From Clostridiales bacterium (lineage in GTDB: Bacteria; Bacillota; Clostridia; Christensenellales; CAG-138): DNA of 64,000 nt. How positions within the stretch are numbered: the first letter of the stretch is position 1; each line of letters opens with the position of its first letter. This document shows positions 1 through 18,935 of the stretch, piece after piece. Made by a program: the position numbers and the translations under genes. Location of the stretch: assembly GCA_004554165.1 (NCBI GenBank), contig SFNQ01000015.1:3375-67374 (forward strand), given 5' to 3'. The notes beneath the pieces are model-generated. The model was not told where the DNA came from. It did no database searches and saw only the letters and a list, made by a program, of their open reading frames with translations.

Positions 1-1320
1 GATGCTCTGTCCGGTGCGATGGACCTGATCGTGACCAAGTCCGTCAGCCGTTTCGCCCGGAACACCGTGGACAGTCTGGTGACGATACGGAAGTTGAAGG
101 AGAAAGGCGTCGAGGTCTACTTTGAAAAAGAGAACATCTACTCCCTCGACGGTAAGGGTGAGCTGCTTTTGACTATTATGTCGAGCCTCGCGCAGGAGGA
201 GTCCAGGTCTATTTCGGAGAATGTCACATGGGGCCAGCGCAAGCGGTTCTCGGACGGCAAGATCACTCTGCCCTATAAGCAATTTCTCGGATACGATCAC
301 GGACCGAAGAAGGACGATCCGCCGGTGGTAAACAAGGAGCAGGCTGCGATCGTTCGCCGGATCTACCGTGACTTCATGGCTGGGAAGACCGTCGGCGCGA
401 TATCGAGAGAGCTGACCGCTGATGGCATCCCGAGCCCTTCCGGGAAATCGAAGTGGAGCGCATCCACGGTGAATAGCATTCTGCAGAACGAGAAGTATCG
501 CGGGTCGGCATTGCTTCAAAAGTGTTTTACGACAGACTTTTTGACCAAGAAGCGGAAGATCAATGAAGGCGAAGTGCCTCAGTACTATATCGAACACAGC
601 CACGAGGCGATCATTGACCCGGATGAATGGGAGGCCGTTCAGGAGGAGATCAAGCGCCGGAAAGCCATAGGCAGGGCGTACAGCAGCGCCAGCATTTTCA
701 GCGCCAAGATCAAGTGCGGCGACTGCGGCGGATGGTACGGCGGGAAGACATGGCACTCGACCGACAAGTACCGGTCCACGATCTGGCGCTGCAACAGCAA
801 ATATGACGATGGCAAGCACCGCTGCCAGACGCCCACATTGCGGGAAAAGGACATTCAGGACCGGTTCGTTTCCGCGTTCAACAGCATGCAGACCGACCGG
901 ACCGCTTACCTTTTGGCCTGCGAAGTCACGAGAGACGCCTTCGCAGATACAAAAGCCATAGATGCGGAGATGGACGAACTGCTCCGGGAAATGGAGGTGG
1001 TTGCCGAGCTCACGCGGAAATGCATAGCTGAGAACTCCGCAACCGCGCAGGACCAGACCGAGTATACCGATCGGTATAACGCTTACGTTGATCGATACGA
1101 AAAGGCAAAAGCCCGTTACGACTCTCTTGCGGCTGTTCGTGCAGAACGGCTGGCCTCAGCAAAAGCCATGGAAAGATTCATGGCGGTGCTCAACGAGCGT
1201 GAGAACCCTCTCGCAGAGTTCGATCACCGGCTTTGGATCACGACCGTGGACTATGCGACGGTGCAAAGGGATGGAACCATCACATTCCGCTTTTATGACG
1301 GAACAGAGATCACAAAGTGA
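1..1320 (+). CDS. Large serine recombinase, 5' end cut by window edge
   Basis: Frame of ORF 19..1320 stays open to base 1. Resolvase motif TKSVSRFARN, recombinase domain, Cys-rich zinc ribbon KCGDCGG...WRCNSKY...HRC, long helical C-terminal tail. Confidence 0.9.
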   Translation, partial: DALSGAMDLIVTKSVSRFARNTVDSLVTIRKLKEKGVEVYFEKENIYSLDGKGELLLTIMSSLAQEESRSISENVTWGQRKRFSDGKITLPYKQFLGYDHGPKKDDPPVVNKEQAAIVRRIYRDFMAGKTVGAISRELTADGIPSPSGKSKWSASTVNSILQNEKYRGSALLQKCFTTDFLTKKRKINEGEVPQYYIEHSHEAIIDPDEWEAVQEEIKRRKAIGRAYSSASIFSAKIKCGDCGGWYGGKTWHSTDKYRSTIWRCNSKYDDGKHRCQTPTLREKDIQDRFVSAFNSMQTDRTAYLLACEVTRDAFADTKAIDAEMDELLREMEVVAELTRKCIAENSATAQDQTEYTDRYNAYVDRYEKAKARYDSLAAVRAERLASAKAMERFMAVLNERENPLAEFDHRLWITTVDYATVQRDGTITFRFYDGTEITK

Positions 1321-1449
1321 AGTAAGGTGCAAGGAGGCAAGATTACAGGGGTGTCCGTTTTGACCTGTTTTCCGTTCATCTGGAATCGGCAGAGCCCGCG
1401 ATACCCCCGTGAAATAAGGCTTTTCGGGCAATCCGTTCTCTCTGTAAGG

Positions 1450-1500
1450 TTGTAATCCAGAAGTCGATTACAATCTTGAAATATTGCAAGTTTGCAATAT
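1450..1500 (+). promoter_or_regulatory. Two adjacent inverted repeats, candidate operators upstream of the XRE gene
   Basis: TTGTAATC(1450-1457)/GATTACAA(1466-1473) and ATATTGCAA(1481-1489)/TTGCAATAT(1492-1500), perfect arms, in the AT-rich gap before the 1572 start. Confidence 0.45.
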
Positions 1501-1571
1501 GGCAAGTGAAATCGCCCAAACGGCAACGCTTTTTCGCTATAAATAACATGTGCAAGGAAAGGTACCGCACT

Positions 1572-1898
1572 ATGATAGCGAAGTTTTCAACAAGGCTCAG
1601 AGAGCTGCGACAAAGCAAAGGACTGCGTCAGGAACAGGTGGCTAAGCTGATCGGCGTAAACAAAAGCGCGATCTCCACTTATGAGAATGATATCCGGCAG
1701 CCCTCTTTTGAGATACTCGTCCGTCTGGCAAATCTATATCGGGTCAGCACAGATTACCTGCTCGGGCAAACGAACACCCGAACCATAGACCTTTCGGAAC
1801 TGACGGAAGAAGAAGCGAACTACATCTGCGGCCTTGTTGAGCTGATGTCTAAAAAAAACGGAATAATTAATAACACACGAGTATGGAGACGGTCATGA
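1572..1898 (+). CDS. XRE-family helix-turn-helix transcriptional regulator
   Basis: HTH_3 pattern LRELRQSKGLRQEQVAKLIGVNKSAISTYENDIRQPSFEILVRLANLY. ATG 1572 follows AGGAAAGG. The ORF-track start at 1476 was judged too far upstream. Confidence 0.85.
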   Translation: MIAKFSTRLRELRQSKGLRQEQVAKLIGVNKSAISTYENDIRQPSFEILVRLANLYRVSTDYLLGQTNTRTIDLSELTEEEANYICGLVELMSKKNGIINNTRVWRRS

Positions 1899-2869
1899 AG
1901 CAAGGCGACAATTTTCAGTACGAGTACTTTTCCTCTGTCACACAGCGCAAGGTCGAGTGGCTTTGGTATCCATATATCCCTTACGGGAAACTGACGATAC
2001 TGCAGGGTGACCCCGGCGAAGGCAAGTCCACGTTCATGCTCAACATCGCGGCGCTGCTGACCCGGGGCAAAGAGATGCCTGACGGGTTCCGTGTACCCGA
2101 GCCACAGCGGGTCGTGTACCAGACTGCGGAGGATAATCTTTCCGACACCGTGAAACCCCGCCTGGTAGCAGCCGGTGCGGATTGCAGTCGGATCGCATAT
2201 ATCATCGACGAGGATCGGCCTTTGACCTTGGAGGATTCGCGGATCGAAAAAGTGATACAGGAAACGCATGCCCGGCTTTTTATCCTCGACCCGCTGCAGG
2301 CGTATCTGTCTCAGGACTCCGATATGTTCAGCGCAGGCAGGATGCGTCAGCAGCTAAGACGGCTGGCGGATATCGCCTCAAAGCATAAATGCGCCATCGT
2401 AGTGATCGGCCACATGAACAAGGCAAGCGGAGAGAAGAATCTCTACCGAGGCCTTGGAAGCATCGACATCGCCGCCATAGCGCGAAGCGTGCTGATGATC
2501 TCACGGGACAAGGATGACCCCTCGATCCGGTATATGTTTCCGGTCAAATCGAGCCTCGCTCCGGAAGGTGCCGCCATAGCGTTTTCCTTCAATCCGAAGT
2601 CAGGGTTAAGGTGGATCGGTCAATGTCATGTGGATCAAAGTCAGATCGAGGATTTCGATATAGACGACAGCAAGAAGGCGCTGGCAAAACGCATCATACT
2701 TGAAATGCTCAGCGAACAGGATACGCATAGTTCGATCATCCTGAACAAGCTCAAGCTCATGGGCATTTCGGAGCGGACGATACACTCTGCCAAGAAGGAA
2801 GTGGGCGTACAGTCATACAGAAGTGATGGGGTTTGGTACTGGCATTTAGATACCCCGTTAGACACATAA
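1895..2869 (+). CDS. RecA/DnaB-like AAA ATPase (AAA_25-type) with C-terminal winged-helix-like tail
   Basis: WLWYPYIPYGKLTILQGDPGEGKST (Walker A), LFILDP (Walker B-like), VVIGHMNK. ATG 1895 overlaps the XRE stop as ATGA; alternative ATG at 1883. Confidence 0.8.
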   Translation: MKQGDNFQYEYFSSVTQRKVEWLWYPYIPYGKLTILQGDPGEGKSTFMLNIAALLTRGKEMPDGFRVPEPQRVVYQTAEDNLSDTVKPRLVAAGADCSRIAYIIDEDRPLTLEDSRIEKVIQETHARLFILDPLQAYLSQDSDMFSAGRMRQQLRRLADIASKHKCAIVVIGHMNKASGEKNLYRGLGSIDIAAIARSVLMISRDKDDPSIRYMFPVKSSLAPEGAAIAFSFNPKSGLRWIGQCHVDQSQIEDFDIDDSKKALAKRIILEMLSEQDTHSSIILNKLKLMGISERTIHSAKKEVGVQSYRSDGVWYWHLDTPLDT

Positions 2870-2881
2870 AGGAGGAACGCG

Positions 2882-4711
2882 ATGCAGGATAATGGCCGCA
2901 GGGAGCAACTGCGTCAGATCTATCAGCGGGAGGACACAGGAGAAAAAACATTCATTCCGGCAAAGCCGAAGATCAACCCAAATGAACGGGATCGCTTCTT
3001 TCGGGTTTGCGCATATTGTCGTGTCTCGACCGATAACGATGAGCAGCTTTCCTCTTTCGAACTCCAGCAGGCGCATTACCGTCAGCTGGTGCAGGAGCAT
3101 CCGAATTGGGAACTCAAGCACATATTTGCGGATCAGGGCATATCCGGGACCTCACTCAAAAACCGGGACCAGTTCAATGCGATGATCGAAGCGTGCAAAA
3201 AAGGCGAATACGATCTCATACTCACAAAGAGCGTATCCCGTTTTGCACGAAACCTGGTGGACTGCATTTCTTTGATCCGCATGCTGAAAGGCCTGACGCC
3301 ACCCGTCGGCGTTTTCTTTGAAACGGACAATTTGTACACGCTCGGGGAGAACACCGAGTTCATGCTTTCTTTTCTCGCCACGTTCGCACAGGAGGAGTCG
3401 GTCAAGAAGAGTGAGTCCATGAACTGGTCGCTGCAGCAGCGGTTCAAGGATGGAAAGCTCTTGACCCCGGCACCGCTTGGCTACGATCGGGAGAAGGACG
3501 CTGCCGGGCACTACGTCAAATACGCTCCGTTACTGCTGAACGAATCCGAAGCCCGGATCGTCCAGTTCATTTACGACGCGTACCTTGCCGGATGGTCACA
3601 GGAAGGCATCGCGGAACTGCTGAAGGATATCGGCTGCCTGACCAAGACCGGGAGCACGGACTGGACCGCCAGCGCTATAGGCTACATCCTGACAAACGAG
3701 CGCTACGTGGGCAACGTCCTCACATGGAAGACCTTTACCGCCGATCTGTACGAACACAAACATAAGAAGAATAGACAGGATCGTGACCAGTACCTGTACC
3801 ACGACCGGCATCCCGCCATAGTCAGCGTGGAAAAGTTCGAGGCGGTCCAGTCGCTGATACAGAACCGAAAGCATCACGTTCGAGGCGGCCTTCCTTCCCT
3901 CCAAGTCATTGATGAGGGCATATTCCGGGGCTATATCCCGATCAACCACCATTGGGTGAATGACGATCCGCATGTCTACTATGACATTTCCAATTCCGTC
4001 ACCAAGGTCATGAGGGTGAAAACGTTCGACAAACGGTCGTTCAGTGCATTCGATCTTTCGGGGTATCAGGTGGTTCGGAACCAGTTCACGCAGGTCCGGT
4101 ACGAAGGACCTTCCATCACGATCGCGGGCAACCGGATCTCATTCAATCTTTTCTGCATGCGCACCTTTGAGGACGTCGGCTATATCCAGCTGCTCCTTCA
4201 CCCGGCAGAGAGAAAGATTGCTATACGTCCGTGCCGTGAACGCGACACGCACAGTATCCGATGGCGGCCCGATCCCGAAAAAGCGGTGTTCCAGAAAACA
4301 CTGAGCTGTCAACACTTTGGGACAGCCCTCTTCAGCATTATGGAATGGGACCCGGATTACATCTACCGAGTACGCGGAACATGGGCAAAACGCGGTCAGG
4401 AGCAGATCATAGTATTCAATCTCATGAACGCGGTCCCGGCGGTTCTGGTGACTCCCGAGAACGCAGACAGTCCTGCCCGCAGGCGAATGGAACTGTGCCC
4501 TGCGGAATGGTCGGATGACTTTGGCGACGAATTCTATGAGCATGTTCTGGAGAACGGATTCTATTACCTCGCTCCGGACAACGAGTGGAAGACAACGGTG
4601 GCCAGCATTCCTGCTCCGGGGATGGAACAGTTTACTGTCCCGACCGCCGAGCAGATTCAACTAACAATAGAAAACCTAACGAGAGGAACGGAAACACCTA
4701 ATGATGGATGA
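2882..4711 (+). CDS. Large serine recombinase lacking a zinc ribbon, with a novel ~170-aa C-terminal module
   Basis: AGGAGG before ATG 2882. Catalytic region CAYCRVSTD, LTKSVSRFARN, recombinase domain (ERYVGNV, HPAIVSVEKFEAVQ). No CxxC pairs afterwards; instead a module paralogous to the next three ORFs. Confidence 0.9.
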   Translation: MQDNGRREQLRQIYQREDTGEKTFIPAKPKINPNERDRFFRVCAYCRVSTDNDEQLSSFELQQAHYRQLVQEHPNWELKHIFADQGISGTSLKNRDQFNAMIEACKKGEYDLILTKSVSRFARNLVDCISLIRMLKGLTPPVGVFFETDNLYTLGENTEFMLSFLATFAQEESVKKSESMNWSLQQRFKDGKLLTPAPLGYDREKDAAGHYVKYAPLLLNESEARIVQFIYDAYLAGWSQEGIAELLKDIGCLTKTGSTDWTASAIGYILTNERYVGNVLTWKTFTADLYEHKHKKNRQDRDQYLYHDRHPAIVSVEKFEAVQSLIQNRKHHVRGGLPSLQVIDEGIFRGYIPINHHWVNDDPHVYYDISNSVTKVMRVKTFDKRSFSAFDLSGYQVVRNQFTQVRYEGPSITIAGNRISFNLFCMRTFEDVGYIQLLLHPAERKIAIRPCRERDTHSIRWRPDPEKAVFQKTLSCQHFGTALFSIMEWDPDYIYRVRGTWAKRGQEQIIVFNLMNAVPAVLVTPENADSPARRRMELCPAEWSDDFGDEFYEHVLENGFYYLAPDNEWKTTVASIPAPGMEQFTVPTAEQIQLTIENLTRGTETPNDG

Positions 4712-5303
4712 TCAAACTGAACAGATTTTCACGAACGCAGAAGTAATCACCGAAGCCGACGCCGAAACGGAGGTCCTTGCGGATCTCGCAGGGTACCAGG
4801 TCACCAAGGCAGAATTGTTCTCCCATACACGGGAGCCCGCCATTACGATCTGGGAGTCCCGGATCAAATTCAATATGGCCTGCCTGAGGAAATTTCCGAA
4901 TGTCACCCACATCCAGATCCTGATCCATCCGGAGCAAAAGCGGCTCATCATCCGCCCGTGTGAACCGGACGCACCGGATTCCCTTCGCTGGGCAAAGGGC
5001 GGCGGCGATAAGGAGCTCACAAACAGGGACCTGCTGTGCAGGCTGTTTGCCGCGAAGATTTTTGACCTGATGGGCTGGGATAATCAGTACCGCTATAAGA
5101 TGATGGGCAAACCCGCCGTGTACAACAACGAGGTCCTGTTCCTTTTCAGACTAACGGATTTTGAGCTGTTCACGAACGGGAAAAAGTCGAAATCGTATCT
5201 TCCCGGTGAGTGGCGGGATTACTTCGGCACGCCTGTCGAGCAGCATGAGGAATCATTCAAGATCGATCTTGCGGATGGATACATCACAACAACTAAAGCC
5301 TAA
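4701..5303 (+). CDS. Hypothetical protein, paralog of the recombinase C-terminal module
   Basis: Shares ordered motifs with residues ~395-560 of ORF 2882..4711 (GYQV, ITIW.SRIKFN, IQILIHPEQKRLIIRPC, SLRW, GWDNQYRY, LFLFRL, PGEWRDYFG). Start overlaps the recombinase stop. Confidence 0.7.
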   Translation: MMDDQTEQIFTNAEVITEADAETEVLADLAGYQVTKAELFSHTREPAITIWESRIKFNMACLRKFPNVTHIQILIHPEQKRLIIRPCEPDAPDSLRWAKGGGDKELTNRDLLCRLFAAKIFDLMGWDNQYRYKMMGKPAVYNNEVLFLFRLTDFELFTNGKKSKSYLPGEWRDYFGTPVEQHEESFKIDLADGYITTTKA

Positions 5304-5317
5304 GGAGGGTGAACACA

Positions 5318-5764
5318 ATGATAAACATGGAAGAATTGAACCTTGACGGATTTCAGATCGTGAAATCTGAAATGTTTCTACACCTGCCGCGTAAAGCCGA
5401 TCCGACTTGTACCATTTGGCCTACAAAAATATCGTTCAGCCGCATGACTCTTCAAGCGTTGAACAACTGTGAATATGTCCGGCTTGAGGTGAATCCAAGC
5501 ACCAAATGCCTGCTGTTAGCGCCGACCCATTCCAGCGACAAAGATAGCATCAGATGGATCAAGGGTCAGAAGGAATTCAGCGTTCGAAATATGGAATCCC
5601 GACAGTTTGGCGAAGAGGTTTATAAAGCATGGGGGCTTGATAAACAATACAATTTCCGGGCAGTCGGTCGGCTCGTATCTGCGCGAAACAAGATTATGAT
5701 GCTATTCGATTTTTCAACTGCCGAAATGTGGAAGACAAAAAAGGTAGGTAATCAAGGTGAATGA
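5318..5764 (+). CDS. Hypothetical protein, second stand-alone paralog of the same module
   Basis: GFQIV, TIWPTKISFSR, YVRLEVNPSTKCLLLAP, SIRW, WGLDKQYNFRAVG, MMLFDF. ATG 5318 lies 8-9 nt after AAGGAGGG; the track start at 5309 is GTG. Confidence 0.7.
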   Translation: MINMEELNLDGFQIVKSEMFLHLPRKADPTCTIWPTKISFSRMTLQALNNCEYVRLEVNPSTKCLLLAPTHSSDKDSIRWIKGQKEFSVRNMESRQFGEEVYKAWGLDKQYNFRAVGRLVSARNKIMMLFDFSTAEMWKTKKVGNQGE

Positions 5765-6125
5765 GACCTATATATCCTTTTACTTAAGATCCAATAAGAT
5801 ACATCTTTTTGTAGATTCGCTCCGGAATATGGGAAGCCCGTCCCGGATCTGCTTCATGGTTGAGGAGAGCGGCGATACGCTGCTGGTTTCTCCATATGGG
5901 AAGCGGGACTTCAAATCGCACAGCGTGCCAACGGATGTTTATAAGGGGACGGGCGGTATGGAGGTTAACAGTTTCAAGCTCTGCCGAATCATAGCCGACC
6001 TCCATCATTGGGACCTCTCCCGATCTTATCGCGTTCCCGGTAAAGTGTACCCGGAGCAGAAGGTGGCCATTTTTAATCTTTCAGAGGCCGAGGTGATTGA
6101 CCGCGCTGAGAGCGATATGCCCTGA
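5757..6125 (+). CDS. Hypothetical protein, divergent third paralog
   Basis: GTG 5757 after AAGGTAGG, overlapping the previous stop. Weaker version of the same pattern (KIHLFVDSL, ICFMVEESGDTLLVSP, WDLSRSYRVPGKV, VAIFNL). Confidence 0.55.
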   Translation: MNETYISFYLRSNKIHLFVDSLRNMGSPSRICFMVEESGDTLLVSPYGKRDFKSHSVPTDVYKGTGGMEVNSFKLCRIIADLHHWDLSRSYRVPGKVYPEQKVAIFNLSEAEVIDRAESDMP

Positions 6126-6261
6126 TGCACCCCTCCCTCCAGAAATGCACCCCTCCCTGTGGCTAAATGCACCCCGCCCCACAGCAATTTGCACCCCACC
6201 CCATAGTTAAATGCACCCCGCCCCATGCCAAAATGCACCCCGGGAAGCAAGGTGGGGTGCA
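6126..6261 (+). repeat. Iteron-like array: six direct TGCACCCC-core repeats at 20/22-bp spacing, ending in an inverted copy
   Basis: TGCACCCC starts at 6126, 6146, 6168, 6190, 6212 and 6234. The extended core is TGCACCCC[T/G/A]CCC. GGGGTGCA at 6254-6261 forms a palindrome with the sixth copy. Confidence 0.85.
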
Positions 6262-6476
6262 TTGGTATCCAAATTAGCGTGATTTGCCACGAAGCCCGCA
6301 GTTCTGATGCCGCCGGTAAACCCGTCCCGCTTCGATACGCAGGCCAGAACCAGACCCACCAGCCCTGTAACCAGCGAAACCCAGGGCGTAATAAACAGAA
6401 AAACATCCGCAACAATGCCCAAAACCAGACTGGCAATGGCCTTACCTCTGCCCGGTACCGGCGCTCCGCTTTCCAT
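6207..6476 (-). CDS. Small membrane protein (DUF4190-like by pattern)
   Basis: Two hydrophobic helices GKAIASLVLGIVADVFLFITPWVSLVTGLVGLVLACV. ATG at 6476. The 3' tail runs into the iteron array, so the true end is uncertain. Confidence 0.5.
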   Translation of the reverse strand: MESGAPVPGRGKAIASLVLGIVADVFLFITPWVSLVTGLVGLVLACVSKRDGFTGGIRTAGFVANHANLDTNAPHLASRGAFWHGAGCI

Positions 6477-6542
6477 ACAACCATCCCCGCTTTCCTTTGA
6501 ATACTTGCGGCAGACATTTTTTCTGTACTGTCGCACATCCTA

Positions 6543-6587
6543 TTTTAGATAATATTTATCTAAAAGTCAATAGACAAATATTATCTA
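6543..6587. promoter_or_regulatory. Perfect palindrome plus a repeated half-site in a divergent promoter region, candidate XRE operator
   Basis: TTTTAGATAA-TAT-TTATCTAAAA at 6543-6565, with 10-bp perfect arms. The half-site TTATCTA recurs at 6581-6587. Confidence 0.5.
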
Positions 6588-6646
6588 TACTATAGTTGGG
6601 AGCAGCCCGACCGGCTGAGTTTTGAAGTAAGCGTGGTGCTGCTTGT

Positions 6647-6859
6647 TTGAAAAACCGCATCAAAGATTTGCGAGAGGACCATGATCTCACGCAGCGGCAG
6701 ATTGCCGATGGCATCGGAATTACCCAGAGAAAATACAGCTATATCGAAACGGGCGTTCAACCCCTGACGGACGATTTGCTGGTGCGGCTTGCGCGCTACT
6801 ATGGCGTCAGCATCGACTATCTGCTGCTGCAAACGGACAATCCCAAAAGGAATCCCTAG
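6647..6859 (+). CDS. XRE-family helix-turn-helix transcriptional regulator
   Basis: 70 aa: LREDHDLTQRQIADGIGITQRKYSYIETGVQPLTDDLLVRLARYYGVSIDYLL. TTG start. Confidence 0.85.
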   Translation: MKNRIKDLREDHDLTQRQIADGIGITQRKYSYIETGVQPLTDDLLVRLARYYGVSIDYLLLQTDNPKRNP

Positions 6860-8364: not shown

Positions 8365-10651
<2,287 letters not shown>

Positions 10652-10667
<16 letters not shown>

Positions 10668-12154
10668 GTTGATGCAAATGCCTCGATCGCCGCGGTAAGC
10701 CGCTGCTTTGTGCCGTCGGTAAGCTGGCCGGCGCGCTGGATTGCCGACAGCAGGACGGAGGATTCCTCCTGAAGCTGCAAAAGCAGCGCCCGGACAAACT
10801 CCTGCACCTGTTCTGCCGGAATCCCCGCCAGGGCGCGTCCGGTGTACGAAAGCAGCAGCGCAATCTCCTCCGACAGCGCATAGGGCCGCTGGGGCTTTTG
10901 CTTGAGCAGCTCCACAAGCCGCGTGCCCGCGTCCAGCTGCGCCTTTGTCGCGGCGTCCAGATCGGACCCGAACTGGGCGAAGATGGCAAGCTCCCGGTAC
11001 TGCGCAAGCTCCAGCCGGAGCGTCCCCGCCACTGCGCGCATGGCCTTGCGCTGCGCGCTCCGGCCCACGCGGGAAACCGAGAGGCCAACGTTCACCGCGG
11101 GCCGCACGCCCGCGCGGAACAGCTCGCTTTCCAGATAGATCTGCCCGTCCGTAATGGAGATCACATTTGTGGGGATATAGGCGCTGATGTCGCCCCCGGT
11201 GGTTTCAACGATGGGCAGCGCGGTCATGGAGCCGCCGCCGTGCGCCTCGTCCAGCTGGGCGCTGCGCTCAAGCAGCCGGCTGTGCAGGTAGAACACATCG
11301 CCCGGATAGGCCTCGCGTCCCGGCGGCCGGTGCAGCAGCAGCGAGAGCGTGCGGTAGGCCACGGCATGCTTGCTCAGGTCGTCGTACACCACAAGCGCAT
11401 CCCGCCCGCTGTACATGAACTCCTCCGCAATGGCGCAGGCCGCATAGGGCGCGATGTACTGCATGGCCGCGGGGTCGGAGGCGGTGGCCGCAACCACCAC
11501 CGTATAGTCCAGCGCGCCCGATTGTTCCAGAGTTTCGATCATCCCGGCGATGCTGGAAGCCTTCTGCCCGATGGCGCAGTAAACGCAGAGCATCTTTTTG
11601 CCGCGCTGGTTCAGGATGATATCCGTGACAATGGTGGTTTTTCCGGTCTGCCGGTCGCCGATGATGAGCTCCCGCTGGCCGCGGCCGATGGGAATCATGG
11701 CGTCCAGGGCGAGGATGCCCGTCTCCAGCGCTCTGTTCACCTTGCCCCGCGCCATGATGCCCGGCGCGTCGCATTCGATGGGCCGGTATGCCGTGTTGTG
11801 CGGCAGCTCCCCAACGAGCGAACGGCCCACCGGGTCTACAATGCGGCCGATGAGCGCATCGCCCACGGGCACCTGCATGGACTGCCCCGTGCCGCGGCAC
11901 ATGGAGCCCACCGCAGGCGTGCCGTTGAGCATGGCGGCGCGCAGGCAGTTCTCGTCCAGATGCAGCACAATGCCGTAAGCCTCGTCCTCAAAGCGGAGAA
12001 GCTCCCCGTAGCGGCAGTCCCGCAGGCCCCGCACCTCGACCACGCCGTCCGCAGAGGACGTAACCGTTCCATAATCGTAGGTGGTGGGCGCAAACGAGAG
12101 CTGCTCGAGCTGCTTTCTGATGTAGCTGCCGATATCGATTCCTGCCATCGTCAT
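10652..12154 (-). CDS. atpA: F0F1 ATP synthase subunit alpha
   Basis: GDRQTGKTT Walker A, 500 aa; start overlaps the atpH stop as ATGA. Confidence 0.97.
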
Positions 12155-12381
12155 TCTCCCCGCGCCAGCAGGTCCCGCACCTCGGAAAGGCGCGTTTTCA
12201 GGCTGGCGTCATAGACGTGGTTTCCCATGTAAATCTTAAAGCCGCCGAGCAGAGTGTCGTCGGTTTCCACCTGCATGCTCTGCACGGGCGTCCCCGTAGC
12301 CCGGTGGAGCCGCGCCTTGAGATGGGCGATATTCTCCCCGCCGAAATTCGCCGGCACAGCCAGAATAACGCGCCGCTTCAT
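12151..12381 (-). CDS. atpH: ATP synthase subunit delta (OSCP), C-terminal domain only (76 aa)
   Basis: Matches only the C-terminal part of delta (VETDDTLLGGFKIYMGNHVYDASLKTRL). ATGA overlaps with both atpF and atpA. Confidence 0.7.
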   Translation of the reverse strand: MKRRVILAVPANFGGENIAHLKARLHRATGTPVQSMQVETDDTLLGGFKIYMGNHVYDASLKTRLSEVRDLLARGE

Positions 12382-12896
12382 GTTCCGGTTCCCCCTTGGG
12401 CCTCCGCGCAGATCGCGTCAAAGTAGGCGTCGATGATATCCGCGTTGTCCTTTTCCGTTACCTCGCGACCGATCACGCGGCCTGCGATGTCCACGGCGAT
12501 GTCCGCCATATCGCGCCGAAGCTGCGCCGTCGCGTCCGCATGCTCCCGCCGGGCCTGCTGCCGCGCGCGGGAGAGCAGCTCCTCCGCGTCGGTCTGCGCC
12601 TGCGCCTGCATGGCGCGCACGGTCTCCTCCGCTCTTTTCAAAACCTCGGCCGCCTGCGCATCCGCATCGGCCTTGGACCGGGACAGCTGGTCAAGATAGG
12701 CTTCGTGCAGCCGCTTTGCCTCGGCCTTTTCCTCCGCAACCCGGTCAAATTCCGCCTGCACGCGGTCCGTTCGCGCCTGCAAAAAGCGCTGCACCGGCCG
12801 GTAGACCAGCGCGCGCAGAATCAAAAACAGCGCGACAATGTTGAGCAAATTCAGAATCAGACTGCCCAGGACGGAGCTGATGCTGTATCCTTCCAT
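12378..12896 (-). CDS. atpF: ATP synthase subunit b
   Basis: N-terminal TM helix followed by a long charged helix (RVQAEFDRVAEEKAEAKRL...), 172 aa. Confidence 0.85.
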   Translation of the reverse strand: MEGYSISSVLGSLILNLLNIVALFLILRALVYRPVQRFLQARTDRVQAEFDRVAEEKAEAKRLHEAYLDQLSRSKADADAQAAEVLKRAEETVRAMQAQAQTDAEELLSRARQQARREHADATAQLRRDMADIAVDIAGRVIGREVTEKDNADIIDAYFDAICAEAQGGTGT

Positions 12897-12910
12897 GAAT
12901 TTCCCCCGTT

Positions 12911-13129
12911 TCAGCGGACAAAGAGCATGATCAGCGCCGTGACAAAACCATAGATGGCGGTGGATTCCACCAGCGCCAGACCCAGCAGCAGAATGGAATT
13001 GATCTTGCCGGAGGCCTCGGGCTGCCGCGCAACCGCTTCCACGGCCTTTCCGGTTGCAAAGCCCATCATAATGCCCGCGCCCATGGCGGGAAGCAGCGCC
13101 AGCGCCGCGCCAATCGGTGTCAGATCCAT
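12911..13129 (-). CDS. atpE: ATP synthase subunit c
   Basis: 72-aa hairpin, ARQPEA loop, carboxylate in [13 protein letters not shown]; GAGGAGG RBS. Confidence 0.93.
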
Positions 13130-13142
13130 AGCAGTTTCCTCC

Positions 13143-14048
13143 TCATTCGATCGCTTCGTTGATAAAGGTCAGCGATAGCGTAATAAATATGAATACCTGA
13201 ATCAGCGGGTGGAACACGTTGAAGTACAGTCCCAGCACCGCAGGCGCGCCAAAGGCCGCGTTGCCCAGCGCAAAGTAAAGCAGTTCCATGACGATCATGC
13301 CGCCGAGCATGTTGCCGAACAGCCGGCAGGCCAGCGACACCGGCACCGCAACGTCCGTCAATATCTTGATCGGGAAGATGACCGGCGTAGGCCGGGCCAT
13401 GGAGCGGAGCCTTCCGCCCAGCCCCTTGCTGCGGATTCCGTAAAAGTTAATCAGGAAGAAGGTGACCAGCGCCATGGCAAAGGTGGTCAGAATGTCCGAG
13501 GTGGGGGCGCGCAGGCCCAGCAGCTCAACCGCGGCGCAGCCGATCATGTACAGTGCCACCGTAAACAGATATGCCGCCAGATTCTCTCCCAGCGGCCTGC
13601 ACAGATTCGCCCTGCAATATCGGGAGAGCCATTCTACCGCCAGCTCCACCACGTTTTGCAGCCCATGCGGCGTCTCCGTAAAGCGGGGAAAGACGAACAG
13701 GCGGAACAGCACCGCCAGCAGAATCAGCGCGCCGGAAACCGAAAAGCCCGTAAGCACCGCGCTGCTGACAGGAAGCCCCAACACCGACGTGAGCGGCGGC
13801 AGGATCTCCACGCTGAACTCCCGCTGCGAAGGACCGAACAGCAGCGAAATCAGCGCCGTAACCGAAAGCCAGACGCCCAGCCAGAACAGGACGGCAGGCA
13901 GGCGCTTCCTCCTGCGATAGCGCCTGACCTCCGGCTTCTGCGCATCCGCGGCGGGCTCAGGGAACTTCCGCGCCAGCGCGCGCAGCACAAGGCCGCCCGC
14001 TGCAAGCAGCGCGCCCAGAATCAGCAGCACCAGCGTTTTGACGTTCAT
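13143..14048 (-). CDS. atpB: ATP synthase subunit a, with an N-terminal extension
   Basis: Conserved Arg context [13 protein letters not shown]. 301 aa, with an extra N-terminal TM and a basic stretch. Confidence 0.9.
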
Positions 14049-14332
14049 TCCTCCGGCCCTCCCTTTTTCCTCTCGCGCAGCATGCCCAGCGCAAAGCGGA
14101 CGATCGCGCCGACCATCAGCCCGGCGATGAGCCCGACGCCCATGGGGAGCAGGTGCTGCTTTGCCACAAGCAGCGTAACCAGCAGCGCGCAGAGCAGTAC
14201 GCCGGCGTTGCCCAGCATTGCAAGCAGGGCCCTGCGCCGCTGCCCCGCAAGGATTGCCGAAGAGGCCGCCGCCAGCAGAAAGAGCGCCCCGACGCCTGCG
14301 GCGGCGCCGATCAGGATCGCAGCCATACCCAT
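14045..14332 (-). CDS. Small hydrophobic protein, AtpI/AtpZ-like by position
   Basis: First gene of the atp operon, three hydrophobic segments, stop overlaps the atpB ATG. ATG 14326 may be the real start. Confidence 0.5.
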   Translation of the reverse strand: MGMAAILIGAAAGVGALFLLAAASSAILAGQRRRALLAMLGNAGVLLCALLVTLLVAKQHLLPMGVGLIAGLMVGAIVRFALGMLRERKKGGPEE

Positions 14333-14587
14333 CCTTTCCGCGCCGCGGCAGGATTCTTTCCCGCCGGCCGGCGCATGTGCTTTTGAACCGGCCCCAATTA
14401 TAACACGTTGCGCCGGTTTGTAAAGCGCGGGAGAGAAATTCTTTATTCCAACTTAATTCTGCTCCCGGTTATTTTTCCCTTTGCGTCATTTTCTCTCTGT
14501 ACGAATCCCGTTTTTTATCTTATAATGGTTTTTAAATTTACCCGGCTGGCCGATGGGACTCCGCCCACAGCCGGAAGGAGGCTGCCA

Positions 14588-15967
14588 ATGAGTAAAATCG
14601 TGTTTGACGCGCATTCCAACCTGCTGCGCGAGAATTATTATTCCTACACCGTGCAGGACGTTAAGGAGCCGAATCTCTTCCCGGAAATCTTTCAGTACGA
14701 TCAGGTGCCGAAGATTGCCTTCAACCGCCGCATTGTGCCGATGCACATGCCGGATGAAATCTGGATCACCGATACGACCTTCCGTGACGGCCAGCAGTCG
14801 CGCGCACCCTTCACGCCCGCGCAGATTCTGCGCCTGTTTGACCTGCTGCACCGGCTGGGCGGCCCCCACGGCGTCATCCGCCAGAGCGAATTCTTCGTGT
14901 ACAGCAGGCAGGATCAGCGGGCGCTGGAGCTCTGTCAGGCGCGGGGGTATCGTTTCCCCGAGATTACCACCTGGATTCGCGCCACGGAGAAGGATTTCAA
15001 CCTGGTCCGGGAACTGGGCGTTTCCGAAACCGGCATCCTCGTCAGCTGCTCGGATTACCATATCTTCAAAAAGATGAACATGACGCGGATGCAGGCCATG
15101 GACCAGTATCTGGGCGTGGTCAAAATGGCGCTGGAGCGCGGCATCCGCCCCCGCTGCCACTTTGAGGACATCACCCGGGCGGATTACTACGGCTTCGTCG
15201 TGCCCTTTGCCCACGCGCTCTCAAAGCTCTCCGAGGAGGCGGGCATCCCCATCAAAATCCGCTGCTGCGATACGCTGGGCCTGGGCGTTTCCTACCCCGG
15301 AGCCTCGCTGCCGCGCAGCGTGCCCGGCATCATCTACGGCCTGCGGCATTACGCCAACATGCCCAGCACCCTTCTGGAGTGGCACGGACACAACGATTTC
15401 GGCAAGGTGGTCTGCAACGCCGCGACCGCCTGGCTGTACGGCGCGTCCTCGGTCAACTGCTCCATCCTGGGCATCGGCGAGCGCACGGGCAACTGCCCGC
15501 TGGAATCCATGGTTATGGAATACTGCTCCCTGCGCGGGCGCAGCGACGAGATGGAACTGCCCGTCATTACAGAAATTGCGGAGTACTTTGAAAAGGAAAT
15601 CGGCTACAGCATCCCGCCGCAGACACCCTTTATGGGCCGGGATTTCTGCGCCACCCGGGCCGGCATCCATGCCGACGGCCTGCTCAAGGACGAGCAGATC
15701 TACAACATTTTCAACACCGAGGCCATTCTGCACCGCCCGCCCTGCGTGCTGGTGGACGCGCACAGCGGACTCGCCGGCATCGCCTACTGGATGAATAACC
15801 AGTTTGGAAAGAACGGCAGGCGCTTTGAAAAGCAGGATGAGCTGGTGGCCAAAGTCAAGGCGGACGTGGACGCGCTCTACGCGCAGGGCCGCACCACCAC
15901 CATGAGCGATGCGGAGCTCAGGGCCATCTGCCATAAATACGCGCCGGAGCTGTCGCCGGACAAGTAA
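14588..15967 (+). CDS. HMGL-like (LeuA/NifV/Re-citrate synthase family) acyl-CoA:2-oxoacid condensing enzyme
   Basis: WITDTTFRDGQQS, HFEDITRAD, HGHNDFG motifs. ATG 14588 after GGAAGGAGG; the track start at 14408 is TTG in a hydrophobic junk leader. Confidence 0.85.
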   Translation: MSKIVFDAHSNLLRENYYSYTVQDVKEPNLFPEIFQYDQVPKIAFNRRIVPMHMPDEIWITDTTFRDGQQSRAPFTPAQILRLFDLLHRLGGPHGVIRQSEFFVYSRQDQRALELCQARGYRFPEITTWIRATEKDFNLVRELGVSETGILVSCSDYHIFKKMNMTRMQAMDQYLGVVKMALERGIRPRCHFEDITRADYYGFVVPFAHALSKLSEEAGIPIKIRCCDTLGLGVSYPGASLPRSVPGIIYGLRHYANMPSTLLEWHGHNDFGKVVCNAATAWLYGASSVNCSILGIGERTGNCPLESMVMEYCSLRGRSDEMELPVITEIAEYFEKEIGYSIPPQTPFMGRDFCATRAGIHADGLLKDEQIYNIFNTEAILHRPPCVLVDAHSGLAGIAYWMNNQFGKNGRRFEKQDELVAKVKADVDALYAQGRTTTMSDAELRAICHKYAPELSPDK

Positions 15968-15983
15968 CCGCCGCCCGCAAAAG

Positions 15984-16019
15984 GGCCCGCCTCCTGCCTG
16001 GGAAGCGGGCCGTTTTTTT
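15984..16019 (+). terminator. Rho-independent terminator
   Basis: GGCCCGC(15984-15990)/GCGGGCC(16005-16011) followed by T7. Confidence 0.6.
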
Positions 16020-16046
16020 CGCGCTGCGCGCCGTGGCTGTTGGGGG

Positions 16047-16976
16047 CTAAGCGGACAGGCCGCTCCGGGGCGCGCCCTTCTTTTCTCTGCGAACGAAAAA
16101 GCGCTCCGGAAGCTGCGCCAGCACAACGGCGACGAGCATCAGCGCGCAGCCGGTCCATTCCCGCCCGGAGAGGCGCTCGCCCAGAAACACCCAGCCCGCC
16201 AGCACCGCAAAGACCGACTCAAGGCACATCAGCAGCGAGGCCACCGTGGGATCCACATGTTTCTGACCGATGATCTGCGCGGTATACGCTACGCCGCAGG
16301 AGAGGACGCCCGCATACAGGAGCATATAGCGGCAGTTGTAAACCTGCTGCAGCGTCGCTGTCTCCGTCAAAAGCGCGCAGACAAGGCTCAGCGTTCCGGC
16401 GACAAAGAACTGCGCGCAGGAAAGCGCCACGCCGTCCACCAGCGGCGCAAAGCGGTCGATGATCAGGATGTGCAGCGCAAAGCACAGCGCCGCAGCCAGC
16501 GTAATGAGATCGCCGCGGTTGACCGTAAGGGCCTCCGATACGCAGAGAAAGTACAGGCTGCACACCGCAAGCGTAACGCCAATCCACAGGTTCACGCCCG
16601 CGCGCCGGCGCAGCGCAAGCCCAAGCACAGGCACCAGCACCACATAGAGCGTGGTCACAAAGGCGGACTTGCCCGCCGTGGTGTACACAAGCCCAAACTG
16701 CTGCAGCGTTGTCGCAAGCCACAGCGCCGCGCCGCACAGCGCGCCCGCCATAAGCCGCATTTTTGCCTCGCCCTGCGGCTGCCCGGCCCGGGCGCGCCTT
16801 CTGCCGCGGAACAGCGCGGCCGGAAGCAGCACAAGCCCGCCCAGCAGCATCCGCAGCGCGTTGAACGTAAAAGGCCGCAGGGACTCCAGCCCCACCACCT
16901 GCACGACAAAGCAGACGCCCCAGATGAGCGCAGCAAGCAAAAGCAGCAGGCTTCCGCCCAATTGTTTTCCCTTCAT
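16047..16976 (-). CDS. DMT/EamA-family transporter
   Basis: 10-TM pattern, LLLLLAALIWGVCFVVQ, two EamA-like halves. Confidence 0.85.
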   Translation of the reverse strand: MKGKQLGGSLLLLLAALIWGVCFVVQVVGLESLRPFTFNALRMLLGGLVLLPAALFRGRRRARAGQPQGEAKMRLMAGALCGAALWLATTLQQFGLVYTTAGKSAFVTTLYVVLVPVLGLALRRRAGVNLWIGVTLAVCSLYFLCVSEALTVNRGDLITLAAALCFALHILIIDRFAPLVDGVALSCAQFFVAGTLSLVCALLTETATLQQVYNCRYMLLYAGVLSCGVAYTAQIIGQKHVDPTVASLLMCLESVFAVLAGWVFLGERLSGREWTGCALMLVAVVLAQLPERFFVRREKKGAPRSGLSA

Positions 16977-17196
16977 GCGCGTTTGCCTCCGCATTCCCAC
17001 GAAATGTTACTTATTGTAGCAGGTTCCGCCCGGGCGCGCAAGGGCTGCGCCGGAGGCTGTTCTGCTCCGGGGCTTTTTGAAACGGATATGAAAAAACAGA
17101 GAATTTTCGCAACCATATGCCGCAAGGTTCAATTTCATGGTATAGTAAAATATCATATTAGTGTATGGGACAAAACCACAGGAGGCTTCGCAGGCT

Positions 17197-17625
17197 ATGG
17201 GTTATTTTGAAGAAATTGGAAAACGGATTGGCCATGTATCCAAAAGCGCGGTCAAAAAGGCCGCAGCCATTGCGGACGGGGCCGGCTTGTCCATGCAGAT
17301 CAACGGGCTGGAGCGCGAACGGGACCGCATCTGCCGCGACCTCGGCGCGGCCTACTTTGCCCGCCACGGCACCGCGCCGGAGCCGGAGCTGGCAGAACTG
17401 TGCTGTGCCGCCGCGCAGAAAACCGCAGAGATCGAGGCGCTGAAGCAGCGACTGCAGCGGCTCAAAAACCAGAAGCTCTGCCCGGCCTGCGGCTTTACGA
17501 ATCCCCGGGAAAACTGCTATTGCAGCAAATGCGGCAGCAAGCTGCCAGAGATTTTTGAGGACGGCGCGCCGGAGGCCGGGGCCCCGTGCGGCGACAGCGC
17601 ATCGGCGCAGGACGCGGCGGACTAG
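17197..17625 (+). CDS. Zinc-ribbon domain protein
   Basis: ATG 17197 after AGGAGG. Coiled region, then CPACGFTNPRENCYCSKCG. Confidence 0.6.
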   Translation: MGYFEEIGKRIGHVSKSAVKKAAAIADGAGLSMQINGLERERDRICRDLGAAYFARHGTAPEPELAELCCAAAQKTAEIEALKQRLQRLKNQKLCPACGFTNPRENCYCSKCGSKLPEIFEDGAPEAGAPCGDSASAQDAAD

Positions 17626-17846
17626 GCTGCGCTTTTCCGACTTGCTTTCAAGCAAAACCGCCCCGTCTCTGTCCCCGTTCAGGCCCTCCGCCGGGGTTTC
17701 GTTTTGCGGCGGGTTTGGCCTGCCCACTGGCAGGAAAGGCCCAGTCCCCGTCCTGATGCGGGCCGATGACAGGCAAAACAAAGGCCCGGCATGCTGCAAA
17801 AAAACAGTCTGCCGGGCCTTCTCCGCTTTGGCGTCCCCGCGCCCCT

Positions 17847-18935
17847 TTAAAACAGGCTCCGATACAGCGCAAACAGCGATTCCGGATCCCCGGGTACGCC
17901 TGTGGTGGCCTCGGGATTCTTTTTCGCGGTCTGCCGGGCATAGAGGCGCAGCTCCGCCTCCGACGGATGGATCTCCGCCGGAAAATGCTGCCGCGCATAG
18001 CCGGAGAGCGCCGCCTTTGTCAGCCCCAGCGCGGAGAGCGCCTGAGCCAGCCGTTTGGGCCGGTGCGCCTCCAGCGCGTCCAGATAGGCCGGGAGCACGA
18101 TGCTGTTGGCCCGGCCGTGGGGGATGCCGTGAAAATAGGTCAGCGGATACCCCATGGCGTGCATCAGCGTCGTCCCCGTCTGCGCGATGGCCATGCCGCC
18201 GAGCATGGAAATGAGCATGAGCATGTCCCGGATTCCCGCATGCTCGCCCCGCGCAAGCGGCTCCATGCACTCGCCAAAGAGCCCCAGCGCATACAGGTTC
18301 AGCGCATCGGTCACGGGCGTGGCCCGCATGGAAAGAAAGCTCTCAAAGCAGTGCTGGAAGGCGTCCATGCCCGTATGCAGCGTGACGTCGTATGGCAGCG
18401 ACTCCGTGTAGCCGGGATCCAGCAGGGCCACCCGCGGGAAGGTCAGCGGCCCGCCGAAGGAACGTTTGGTCTGCGCCGTGTCGTCGGTCATGATGGACCA
18501 GGGCGTGACCTCGCTGCCCGTGCCGCTGGTGGTCGGAACGGCCGCGATGGGCAGCACGCCTCCCGCATAGCCATACTGGAACAGACGCTCCTCCGGAATA
18601 TCGTTTGCCGCAAATACCGCGACGGCCTTTGCCGCGTCCAGCGGCGAGCCGCCGCCCACGCCGACGATGAAATCCGCGCCAAAGGCGCGCGCCTTTTCTC
18701 CGAGGGCGCGACATTCCCTGACGTTGGGGTTGTTTGTCACGCTCTCGGACGTTTCAAAGGCCACGCCCTCCGCCGTCAGCGCCGCCTCCACATCGGCAAG
18801 CGCCCCGCAAACACGTCCCGACCGCCGGCCTGCCACGACAAACGCCCGACGTCCCAGCGCCAGCAGGTCCGCGTTCTCCCGCACCGCGCCGCGGCCAAAG
18901 CGCACTCCGGCCGGCATTTCAAACGAAAACCGCAT
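17847..18935 (-). CDS. Iron-containing alcohol dehydrogenase
   Basis: GVGGGSPLDAAKAV, HAMGYPLTYFHGIPHG; GGAGG before ATG 18935. Confidence 0.9.
   Translation of the reverse strand: MRFSFEMPAGVRFGRGAVRENADLLALGRRAFVVAGRRSGRVCGALADVEAALTAEGVAFETSESVTNNPNVRECRALGEKARAFGADFIVGVGGGSPLDAAKAVAVFAANDIPEERLFQYGYAGGVLPIAAVPTTSGTGSEVTPWSIMTDDTAQTKRSFGGPLTFPRVALLDPGYTESLPYDVTLHTGMDAFQHCFESFLSMRATPVTDALNLYALGLFGECMEPLARGEHAGIRDMLMLISMLGGMAIAQTGTTLMHAMGYPLTYFHGIPHGRANSIVLPAYLDALEAHRPKRLAQALSALGLTKAALSGYARQHFPAEIHPSEAELRLYARQTAKKNPEATTGVPGDPESLFALYRSLF

Follow-up and report, generated by a model that had tools for sequence, protein, structure and literature searches.

What takes the place of the zinc ribbon in a large serine recombinase (LSR) that has none, and why is the replacing domain also present in free-standing copies? 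The question is raised by a 64,000-nt stretch of DNA from a Clostridiales bacterium (Christensenellales, CAG-138; assembly GCA_004554165.1, contig SFNQ01000015.1, positions 3,375 to 67,374), which in its whole is referred to as the window. Genome engineering makes major use of large serine integrases, in which the choice of site and the direction are dictated by the zinc-ribbon/coiled-coil region. The recombinase rec609, encoded at 2882-4711, carries in place of this region a module that recurs in three proteins encoded immediately downstream, p200, p151 and p122. Bases 1..6286 of the window are the right end of an integrating element, either a prophage or an ICE (integrative and conjugative element), of gut Clostridia, which uses many target sites. 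An earlier reading of the bare sequence (hereafter the original prediction) had described the replaced zinc ribbon and the tandem paralogs, and had assigned to them a possible role in DNA recognition or directionality control.

Two Pfam domains of serine recombinases were identified in rec609, Resolvase (PF00239, aa 43-192, E 1.1e-25) and Recombinase (PF07508, aa 222-329, E 8e-23). The protein matches the sequence of PDB entry 3g13 (E 2e-33), the nucleophile motif RVSTDNDEQ is intact, its serine being at about S49, and the motif CAYCRVSTDNDEQ is present. As far as can be told from sequence, rec609 is a catalytically intact paralog of canonical LSRs. The zinc-ribbon domain Zn_ribbon_recom (PF13408) was not found in rec609 by the Pfam search, nor was DUF4368 (PF14287) at E up to 1. 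The absence of CxxC pairs claimed earlier holds for the C-terminal 279 aa, which contain four scattered Cys and zero CxxC; it does not hold for the whole protein, as a sole pair (C43-AY-C46) is located within the catalytic domain, and none is found after residue 46. The rec609 family was aligned by profile (hhalign) to 15 canonical LSRs from related loci. The two match over residues 22-356, with about 40% identity and 100% probability, and the similarity stops at the first zinc knuckle, where rec609 reads IFRGYIPINH and the canonical proteins IFASKLICGD. Since the match ends at the first CxxC knuckle, the zinc-ribbon region has been replaced, as the original prediction maintained, and not merely mutated. 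The neighbouring rec433 is a second recombinase of the same element, and features the canonical zinc ribbon that had been attributed to it (Zn_ribbon_recom, E 2e-12). No long helical hairpin or coiled coil is seen past residue 334 of rec609 in the full-length AlphaFold2 (AF2) model, the confidence of which is low outside residues 410-520.

The replacing module is about 140 residues long, of alpha/beta type, and found in rec609, p200, p151 and p122. The rec609 C-terminus matches p200 and p151 in BLASTP searches with E values of 5e-30 and 4e-13, respectively, and p200 matches p151 at 7e-26, so that the recurrence described earlier is borne out for these copies. The fourth copy had been called weaker, and it is: the match of p122 to the rec609 C-terminus is marginal (8.5e-4), and pairwise BLASTP comparisons of p122 with p200 and p151 are not significant. 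Its homology is settled by family profiles, as the p122 family profile aligns to those of the p151, rec609 C-terminal and p200 families over about 102 columns with P values of 1.4e-14, 3e-10 and 3.8e-9. Profile-profile P values across the four copies range from 1e-9 to 1e-32, and by this measure all four are homologous. p122 is missing the N-terminal 'LxGYQV' segment. All the module cores are basic (pI 8.9-9.35); in p200, the core of which has a pI of 9.35, acidic termini flank the basic core.

That the module belongs to no named family, as originally held, was borne out by searches of Pfam, NCBIfam, PHROGs and PDB sequences with single copies, the profile and 86-150 family members, all of which were negative. 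The sole profile signal was a sub-threshold match to DUF6128 in 2 of 86 members. The AF2 model of p200 has a confident core (residues 45-160, pLDDT 76-90), in which the order of elements is beta-beta-alpha-beta-beta, then alpha-beta-beta-beta. A Foldseek search of this model against the PDB found no relative (best E 0.045, TM-score below 0.2), and matches to sliding clamps, being weak (TM-score about 0.1), were rejected. Matches in BFVD are limited to uncharacterised phage proteins, the best being Gp105 of Lactococcus phage KSY1 (E 2.8e-4). The AbrB/SpoVT-like pattern once perceived in the module is unsupported, and the suggestion is to be dropped. None of 86 family members matches SpoVT/AbrB models at E up to 1, an hhalign comparison with seven AbrB-type sequences gave P = 0.07 over 19 columns, which rejects the identity at the sequence level, and no AbrB relative emerged from the PDB search. 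Only the beta-beta-alpha-beta-beta order fits, as formed by residues 47-87 of p200 in a monomer model; the swapped-hairpin fold of AbrB forms only as a dimer.

A family profile made from the four copies retrieved 2286 clusters at 50% identity (E <= 1e-3), 993 of which at E <= 1e-10. Most members are free-standing proteins of 120-290 aa, and a Recombinase domain was detected in 28 of the best 150. A species survey, in which each species was represented by one genome, recovered 80 loci, mostly from Oscillospiraceae, Acutalibacteraceae, Ruminococcaceae, Lachnospiraceae and Christensenellales. The order recombinase (about 610 aa), p200, p150, p120 is constant throughout. The co-occurrence of a zinc-ribbon-less recombinase with tandem paralogs, first noticed in the window, is hence a conserved trait, and of the 66 loci that extend far enough downstream, 57 have at least three free copies after the recombinase. 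When 56 cassettes were compared, each copy was matched best, in another locus, by the one at its own position (56/56 for each position), and the quadruplication is therefore ancient. In the comparison with a 90%-identical relative (L006), the dN/dS ratio is 0.042 for rec609, 0.031 for p200, 0.084 for p122 and 0.05 for the AAA_25 ATPase gene that precedes rec609; judged by these ratios, the cassette is under strong purifying selection. Mean pairwise identity is higher for p200 (0.70) than for the recombinase (0.60). The p150 and p120 genes evolve fast, mean identities being 0.42 and 0.40.

The cassette is found also in annotated Candidatus (Ca.) Heliusvirales gut phages, where every gene of it is labelled hypothetical; some p200 orthologs have been named 'integrase' by NCBI. 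One p151-type protein sequence is present on at least 999 contigs. A very common prophage end (L224-type) is made of holin, endolysin, LSR491, LSR542, XRE, AAA_25, rec608, p201, p151 and p124 genes, and loci L224-L229 feature three serine recombinases (LSR491, LSR542 and rec608). In the ICE-like loci L001-L003 the cassette abuts radC, and no canonical LSR was found in the 3-7 kb of upstream sequence; rec608 is therefore the only recombinase seen near that end.

Some cassettes have been rearranged. The p151 gene of the window and its L006 counterpart (12440-12892) are only 41% identical, while identity is 90% for rec609, 93% for p200 and 80% for p122. By contrast, p151 is 82% identical to its homolog in L018 (10617-11060), a locus in which the recombinase is only 74% identical. 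The mismatch with the neighbours denotes a swapped allele, and points to recombination within the cassette. In L008 the p150 gene is split by an unrelated insertion (9129-18264), a Tn4451/Tn5397-like mobilisable element, which encodes MobC, TnpW, a relaxase and a serine recombinase with DUF4368. In a related subfamily (L010-L012; motif ...LLMEY|SRKTKLGRVEWNPGTLAGVLANERHCG...) the 3' portion of the module-bearing recombinase gene is joined in frame to N-terminal halves of unrelated genes, among which epimerase, GalK, GlmS and topoisomerase (fusion proteins P0251, P0304, P0306, P0307, P0310 and P0313). At least five fusions have one common junction inside the Recombinase domain, and the DNA junctions share TAT|AGCCGT. 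This pattern points to a possible crossover site that lies within the recombinase gene and recombines with many targets. ICEs targeting rumA provide a precedent for an att site located within a serine integrase gene (PMC4701971).

The genes of rec609 and its paralogs overlap or abut, as originally reported: the rec609 stop and the p200 ATG overlap by 11 nt, p200 and p151 are separated by 14 nt, and the p151 stop and the p122 GTG overlap by 8 nt. The gap is measured from ATG 5318, the start chosen in the original prediction, which lies 9 nt downstream of AAGGAGG and is most likely the p151 start, to be preferred over GTG 5309. Ribosome-binding sites are present for the cassette genes, and their expression appears linked. 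The last five genes (AAA_25, rec609, p200, p151 and p122) are a predicted single operon.

Where the element ends was established by comparison with empty sites, found in ten contigs of the same host species that lack the element (L093-L102). From window 6287 onward, within a DUF4190-like gene, the sequence again matches that of the host, which sets the right junction at 6286/6287. The 161 bp past p122 therefore belong to the element, and the cassette is located at its extremity. The only sequence common to element end and empty site is CCA. The 161-bp interval holds six direct repeats, one inverted copy and the core GTATCCAAATTAG CGTGATTTG CCA. Exact matches to ATGCACCCC are seven in the window vs 0.65 expected, and six of these fall within 6125..6241. 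The region 6126-6261, singled out earlier as a potential binding target, is in fact inside the element end, which features six phased TGCACCCC repeats beside an LSR-type recombination core.

An identical end was found on eight more metagenome contigs, all diverging after CCA. Two of these contigs represent one locus, and the distinct flanks beyond CCA are eight, window included; the number of repeats varies from 1 to 6 among identical ends. A strong hairpin is found 2-4 nt after CCA in 5/9 flanks, with z-scores of -3 to -8. The L238 hairpin includes the 13-bp core motif in perfect inverted form, and the resulting structure, GTATCCAAATTAG-n22-CTAATTTGGATAC, is a 48-bp dyad centred on the junction, with a 13+11+11+13 layout. 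L233 and L236 carry 10/13 versions. Most other flanks have no obvious matching half-site, only the window and L232 having been compared base by base, by hand. Related ends, in which 3-6 TGCAMCC repeats are followed by TATCMAAA, were found in L018, L021, L038, L055, L058, L061, L086, L186, L189 and L211. Arrays of T[GT]CA[AC]C[CG] are six in 1.62 Mb of loci; all are on the plus strand, downstream of the cassette, and adjoin the TATCMAAA core. The distance from array to core is 10-25 bp in all ten or more examples. The left junction of the window element was not found in Joint Genome Institute (JGI) metagenomes, and no DNA match to the region was found in the plasmid collection.

Ends located immediately upstream of differing terminator-like hairpins followed by a T-run were found in L224, L226, L228-L231 (about 160 bp past the p124 stop), L232 and L234. 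These are independent copies of two related element lineages, which may insert preferentially just 5' of intrinsic terminators. The 'hairpin' of L233, L236 and L238 holds instead the inverted copy of the core motif of the element. L236 and L238 feature also a second iteron-like array adjoining the dyad (about 180-330 nt beyond the junction in L238), in which GTAATCGTGTGCGAGATGGG occurs 6-7 times, spaced by about 21 bp. In L235 the flank following CCA joins a window-type right end to the middle of a canonical LSR gene, and the encoded peptide matches window rec433 around residues 167-190 (QKCFTTDFLTKKRKINEGEV...); the join may have arisen by insertion into a recombinase gene belonging to this kind of element, or else by rearrangement with such a gene.

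The idea that the repeats are unique to this system was rejected, as an IMG/VR scan found the same 8-mer, with a 22-bp period, in origin iterons of unrelated phages. L132 (6610-7401) and about 100 other IMG/VR loci (L104-L223) contain 4-5 TGCACCCCGTTCTG repeats with 22-bp period, plus one inverted copy, which sit inside lambda-O-like replication-initiator genes of many GC-rich prophages. The TGCACCCCGTTCTG arrays form a large family of origin iterons, which have the 8-mer in common with the window element end. A link between p151 allele and repeat type has been similarly dropped. TGCACCCC arrays are present in both the window and L018, the p151 sequences of which are 82% identical. The motif, however, recurs in L058 and L061, where identity of p150 is 32%, and an array is missing from L224, where identity of p151 is 66%. 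Over 1326 locus pairs p150 follows the recombinase as closely as the other genes (Spearman 0.73).

The architecture is real, statistically solid and general, and the functional reading of it is plausible, reasonable though unproven. The account preferred here, tentatively and short of an even chance, is that module and paralogs assemble on the element end and control recombination. With the zinc-ribbon/coiled-coil region lost, its role of holding the site and bridging subunits would pass to the fused module. The free copies p200, p151 and p122 would join it in a hetero-oligomer, the site of which would be formed by the 1-6 phased TGCACCCC repeats beside the 48-bp LSR-type core. The stable donor-end complex might recombine with loosely defined targets sharing CCA, could gate direction, and would probably cooperate with the element's own canonical LSRs, in the manner of the 'triplet of serine integrases' considered below. 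This account presumes that the module binds DNA, that the copies assemble together and that specificity or directionality is affected. It draws on the domain replacement, the homology and position-specific orthology of the four copies, their conservation, the linked expression and basic cores, the location of the cassette at the element extremity with arrays adjoining a core, the view of rec608 as the only recombinase near the end of L001-L003, and the several targets of the identical end.

Several data weigh against it. The lack of a coiled coil in rec609 is not firm, because the mean pLDDT of the full-length model is 56. The module has no known fold relative in the PDB, and all its BFVD matches are uncharacterised phage proteins. 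The variation from 1 to 6 repeats implies that a fixed stoichiometry with the four module copies is not required. In L189 array and core directly follow a canonical LSR pair, and no module gene is present in 6.6 kb. The 48-bp dyad resembles an ordinary LSR att site, which canonical LSRs could read alone, and in unrelated phages TGCACCCC arrays with 22-bp period are commonly found as iterons of replication origins. Cassette-only loci (L001-L004) and the L224-type prophage lack such repeats altogether. In view of L189, the array-less cassette ends and the iterons, co-assembly is held at the strength given above, next to two less probable explanations.

The first of these, rather unlikely, is a division of labour in which the zinc-ribbon LSRs integrate and excise at the 48-bp core, and the AAA_25-rec609-paralog operon does something else. 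It might ensure replication or maintenance of the excised element, the TGCACCCC repeats being iterons and AAA_25 a helicase, or alternatively resolve or regulate tandem copies. L189, where LSR pair, array and core are found and the cassette is not, fits this explanation, and so do the 13+11+11+13 dyad of L238, typical of LSR att sites, the occurrence of arrays with the same period and one inverted copy in lambda-O-like genes of many IMG/VR phages, the variable number of repeats, and the weak scores of the AAA_25 product against DnaB_C, KaiC and RadA models. An origin, however, needs no proximity to the core, and array and core are always 10-25 bp apart; moreover, rec609 has kept its catalytic residues under strong purifying selection, the 3-7 kb upstream of the cassette in L001-L003 show no other recombinase, and a replication-initiator gene was not seen in the cassette.

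It is also conceivable, though unlikely, that the free paralogs pair with the fused module and block or license synapsis, controlling directionality through protein contacts. Their action would resemble that of a recombination directionality factor at the coiled coil, or inhibition by a truncated transposase. The free copies are indeed homologous to the fused domain, their expression appears linked, and the maintenance of three separate position-specific lineages suggests distinct partners or steps. The acidic termini around the basic core of p200 are in line with this hypothesis, and the absence of arrays from many cassette-bearing ends implies that DNA arrays are not the universal partner. 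Directionality factors are usually expressed apart from the integrase, so that direction can switch; here, unlike in the usual case, all copies are in one operon with overlapping genes. To our knowledge, no sequence definition exists for these factors, small integrase-binding proteins that reverse direction.

An extended form of co-assembly, a serine-recombinase 'transpososome' in which the AAA_25 ATPase, rec609 and the three paralogs build a multi-subunit complex on the phased end repeats, is likewise doubtful. The four specialised copies of a new DNA-binding/assembly domain would build the complex, and the ATPase would assist in the capture of targets that are loosely defined and often located shortly upstream of terminator hairpins. 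If true, abundant gut prophages and ICEs would have a transposition-like integration route, distinct from those of canonical LSRs and TndX-type enzymes. It is highly improbable that the module copies lack a function of their own, being duplicates in decay or a degenerate zinc ribbon that was mis-called, because the weak pairwise similarity of p122 and the fast evolution of p150 and p120 are outweighed by conservation data that already contradict it: dN/dS of 0.03-0.08, orthology by position, presence of the set in 80 species-level loci and in phages, a confidently folded core in the AF2 model, and free-standing members far outnumbering fused ones.

As in the LSRs of phiC31, Bxb1, A118/LI and SPbeta (SprA), a Resolvase domain with the RVST nucleophile motif is followed in rec609 by a Recombinase domain, the gene occupies one end of an integrated element, and a core dyad of about 48 bp can be made out in L238. 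Unlike these, rec609 has no zinc ribbon and no predicted coiled coil, featuring instead the module and an acidic tail; three free paralogs and an AAA_25 ATPase are encoded in its operon, and the core of the window element is flanked by phased subterminal repeats and recombines at several target sites. The LSRs of the TndX/TnpX type, which are multi-targeting, carry DUF4368 (Durrant et al. 2022, PMC10083194). rec609 similarly departs from the standard in its C-terminal region, and is associated with integration at many sites, but lacks DUF4368, and members of that clade are not known to come with free C-terminal-domain paralogs. Accessory-site systems (Tn3/gamma-delta res sites II/III, lambda arm-type sites, Tn7 TnsB/TnsC, Mu A/B) have in common with the cassette, as a design analogy only, phased repeats on one side of the crossover, an operon ATPase and relaxed target choice; no homology to any of their proteins was found.

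A precedent comes from a survey of streptococcal ICEs (Ambroset et al. 2016, PMC4701971), in which a 'triplet of serine integrases' was catalogued, its mechanism not being studied. In that survey 10 of 42 integrases lack PF13408, and coding sequences lie in some cases between triplet and target gene (PMC4701971). The window element resembles the triplets, compared by description only, for the co-oriented serine recombinase genes at one element extremity, and for insertion inside a gene with a very short shared sequence (CCA). Serine recombinases near the end are two in the window (19-1320 and 2882-4711; the region is cut at the window start), three in L224-L229 and one in L001-L003. In contrast to streptococcal triplets, the third recombinase is separated here from the pair by helix-turn-helix (HTH) and AAA_25 genes. 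There is no mention in PMC4701971 of a replacing module, paralogs, an AAA_25 gene or end repeats, and a literature search for zinc-ribbon-less LSRs with paralogs found nothing relevant. The original view that the architecture was not a described one has therefore to be restricted to the module and its free paralogs, as zinc-ribbon-less integrases in triplets were already on record. The architecture is new as an LSR variant, within multi-recombinase modules noted before but unstudied.

A whole lineage has swapped the LSR zinc-ribbon/coiled-coil region for an unnamed domain, and keeps three separate copies of it plus an ATPase. This lineage spans gut Clostridia ICEs and Ca. Heliusvirales phages, and the attached element ends are found at many different targets. 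The function of the module, once worked out, would explain the long-noted multi-recombinase ('triplet') integration modules and give a name to a large domain family. It could also reveal a second natural way of relaxing or redirecting serine integrase specificity.

The features of the element end are listed in Table 1. G+C content is 0.51-0.54 from base 1 to about 6290, and about 0.6 and above in the remaining window; all genes in the former interval are on the plus strand. The HTH gene occupies the same place in relatives, and the AAA_25 gene is conserved immediately 5' of the recombinase. One to three canonical LSRs are often found farther upstream of the cassette.

Table 1. Genes and DNA motifs at the right end of the integrative element (window coordinates)
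Feature	Position	Strand	Remarks
rec433, canonical LSR, C-terminal 433 aa	19..1320	+	Resolvase, Recombinase and Zn_ribbon_recom domains; truncated by window start
XRE-type helix-turn-helix regulator	1476..1898	+	HTH_3, E 4e-18
AAA_25 (RecA/DnaB-C-like) ATPase	1883..2869	+	First cassette gene; AAA_25, E 1e-26; rec609 begins 12 nt later
rec609 serine recombinase	2882..4711	+	Catalytic domain nt 3008-3457; recombinase domain nt 3545-3868
rec609 C-terminal parts	~3917-3949; ~4037-4471; 4472-4708	+	Cys-less first-knuckle remnant; module; acidic tail
p200, free module paralog A	4701..5303	+	Most conserved cassette gene; BLASTP 5e-30 vs rec609 C-terminus
p151, free module paralog B	5318..5764	+	148 aa from ATG 5318; alternative start GTG 5309
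p122, free module paralog C	5757..6125	+	Shortest, most divergent; hhalign P 1e-9 to 1e-14 vs other three families
Six direct (A)TGCACCCCnCCC copies	6125..6241	+	20-22 bp spacing; first copy begins at final base of p122 stop codon
Inverted pair ATGCACCCC-n12-GGGGTGCAT	6233..6262	.	End of repeat array; conserved in L232-L239
Element-side half of recombination core, GTATCCAAATTAG CGTGATTTG then CCA	6265..6289	+	CCA common to every target
5' remnant of disrupted host gene	6287..6536	-	DUF4190-like small membrane protein; intact form 196-212 aa

In the closest relatives a tight 8-bp tandem array, (TGCACCCC)n, with 7-13 or more units, was found about 1.3 kb beyond p122 (L005-L007, 14551-14763; L009, 9802-9863), and assemblies break there. 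The array lies directly upstream of a gene on the minus strand, the 200-aa product of which matches no family, and could be a slippage-prone contingency tract. On the host side of the window junction, a 22-nt imperfect inverted repeat (TATTTTAGATAATATTTATCTA / TAGACAAATATTATCTATACTA) is located at 6541-6592, just upstream of the host XRE gene 6647-6859, of which it is probably the operator.

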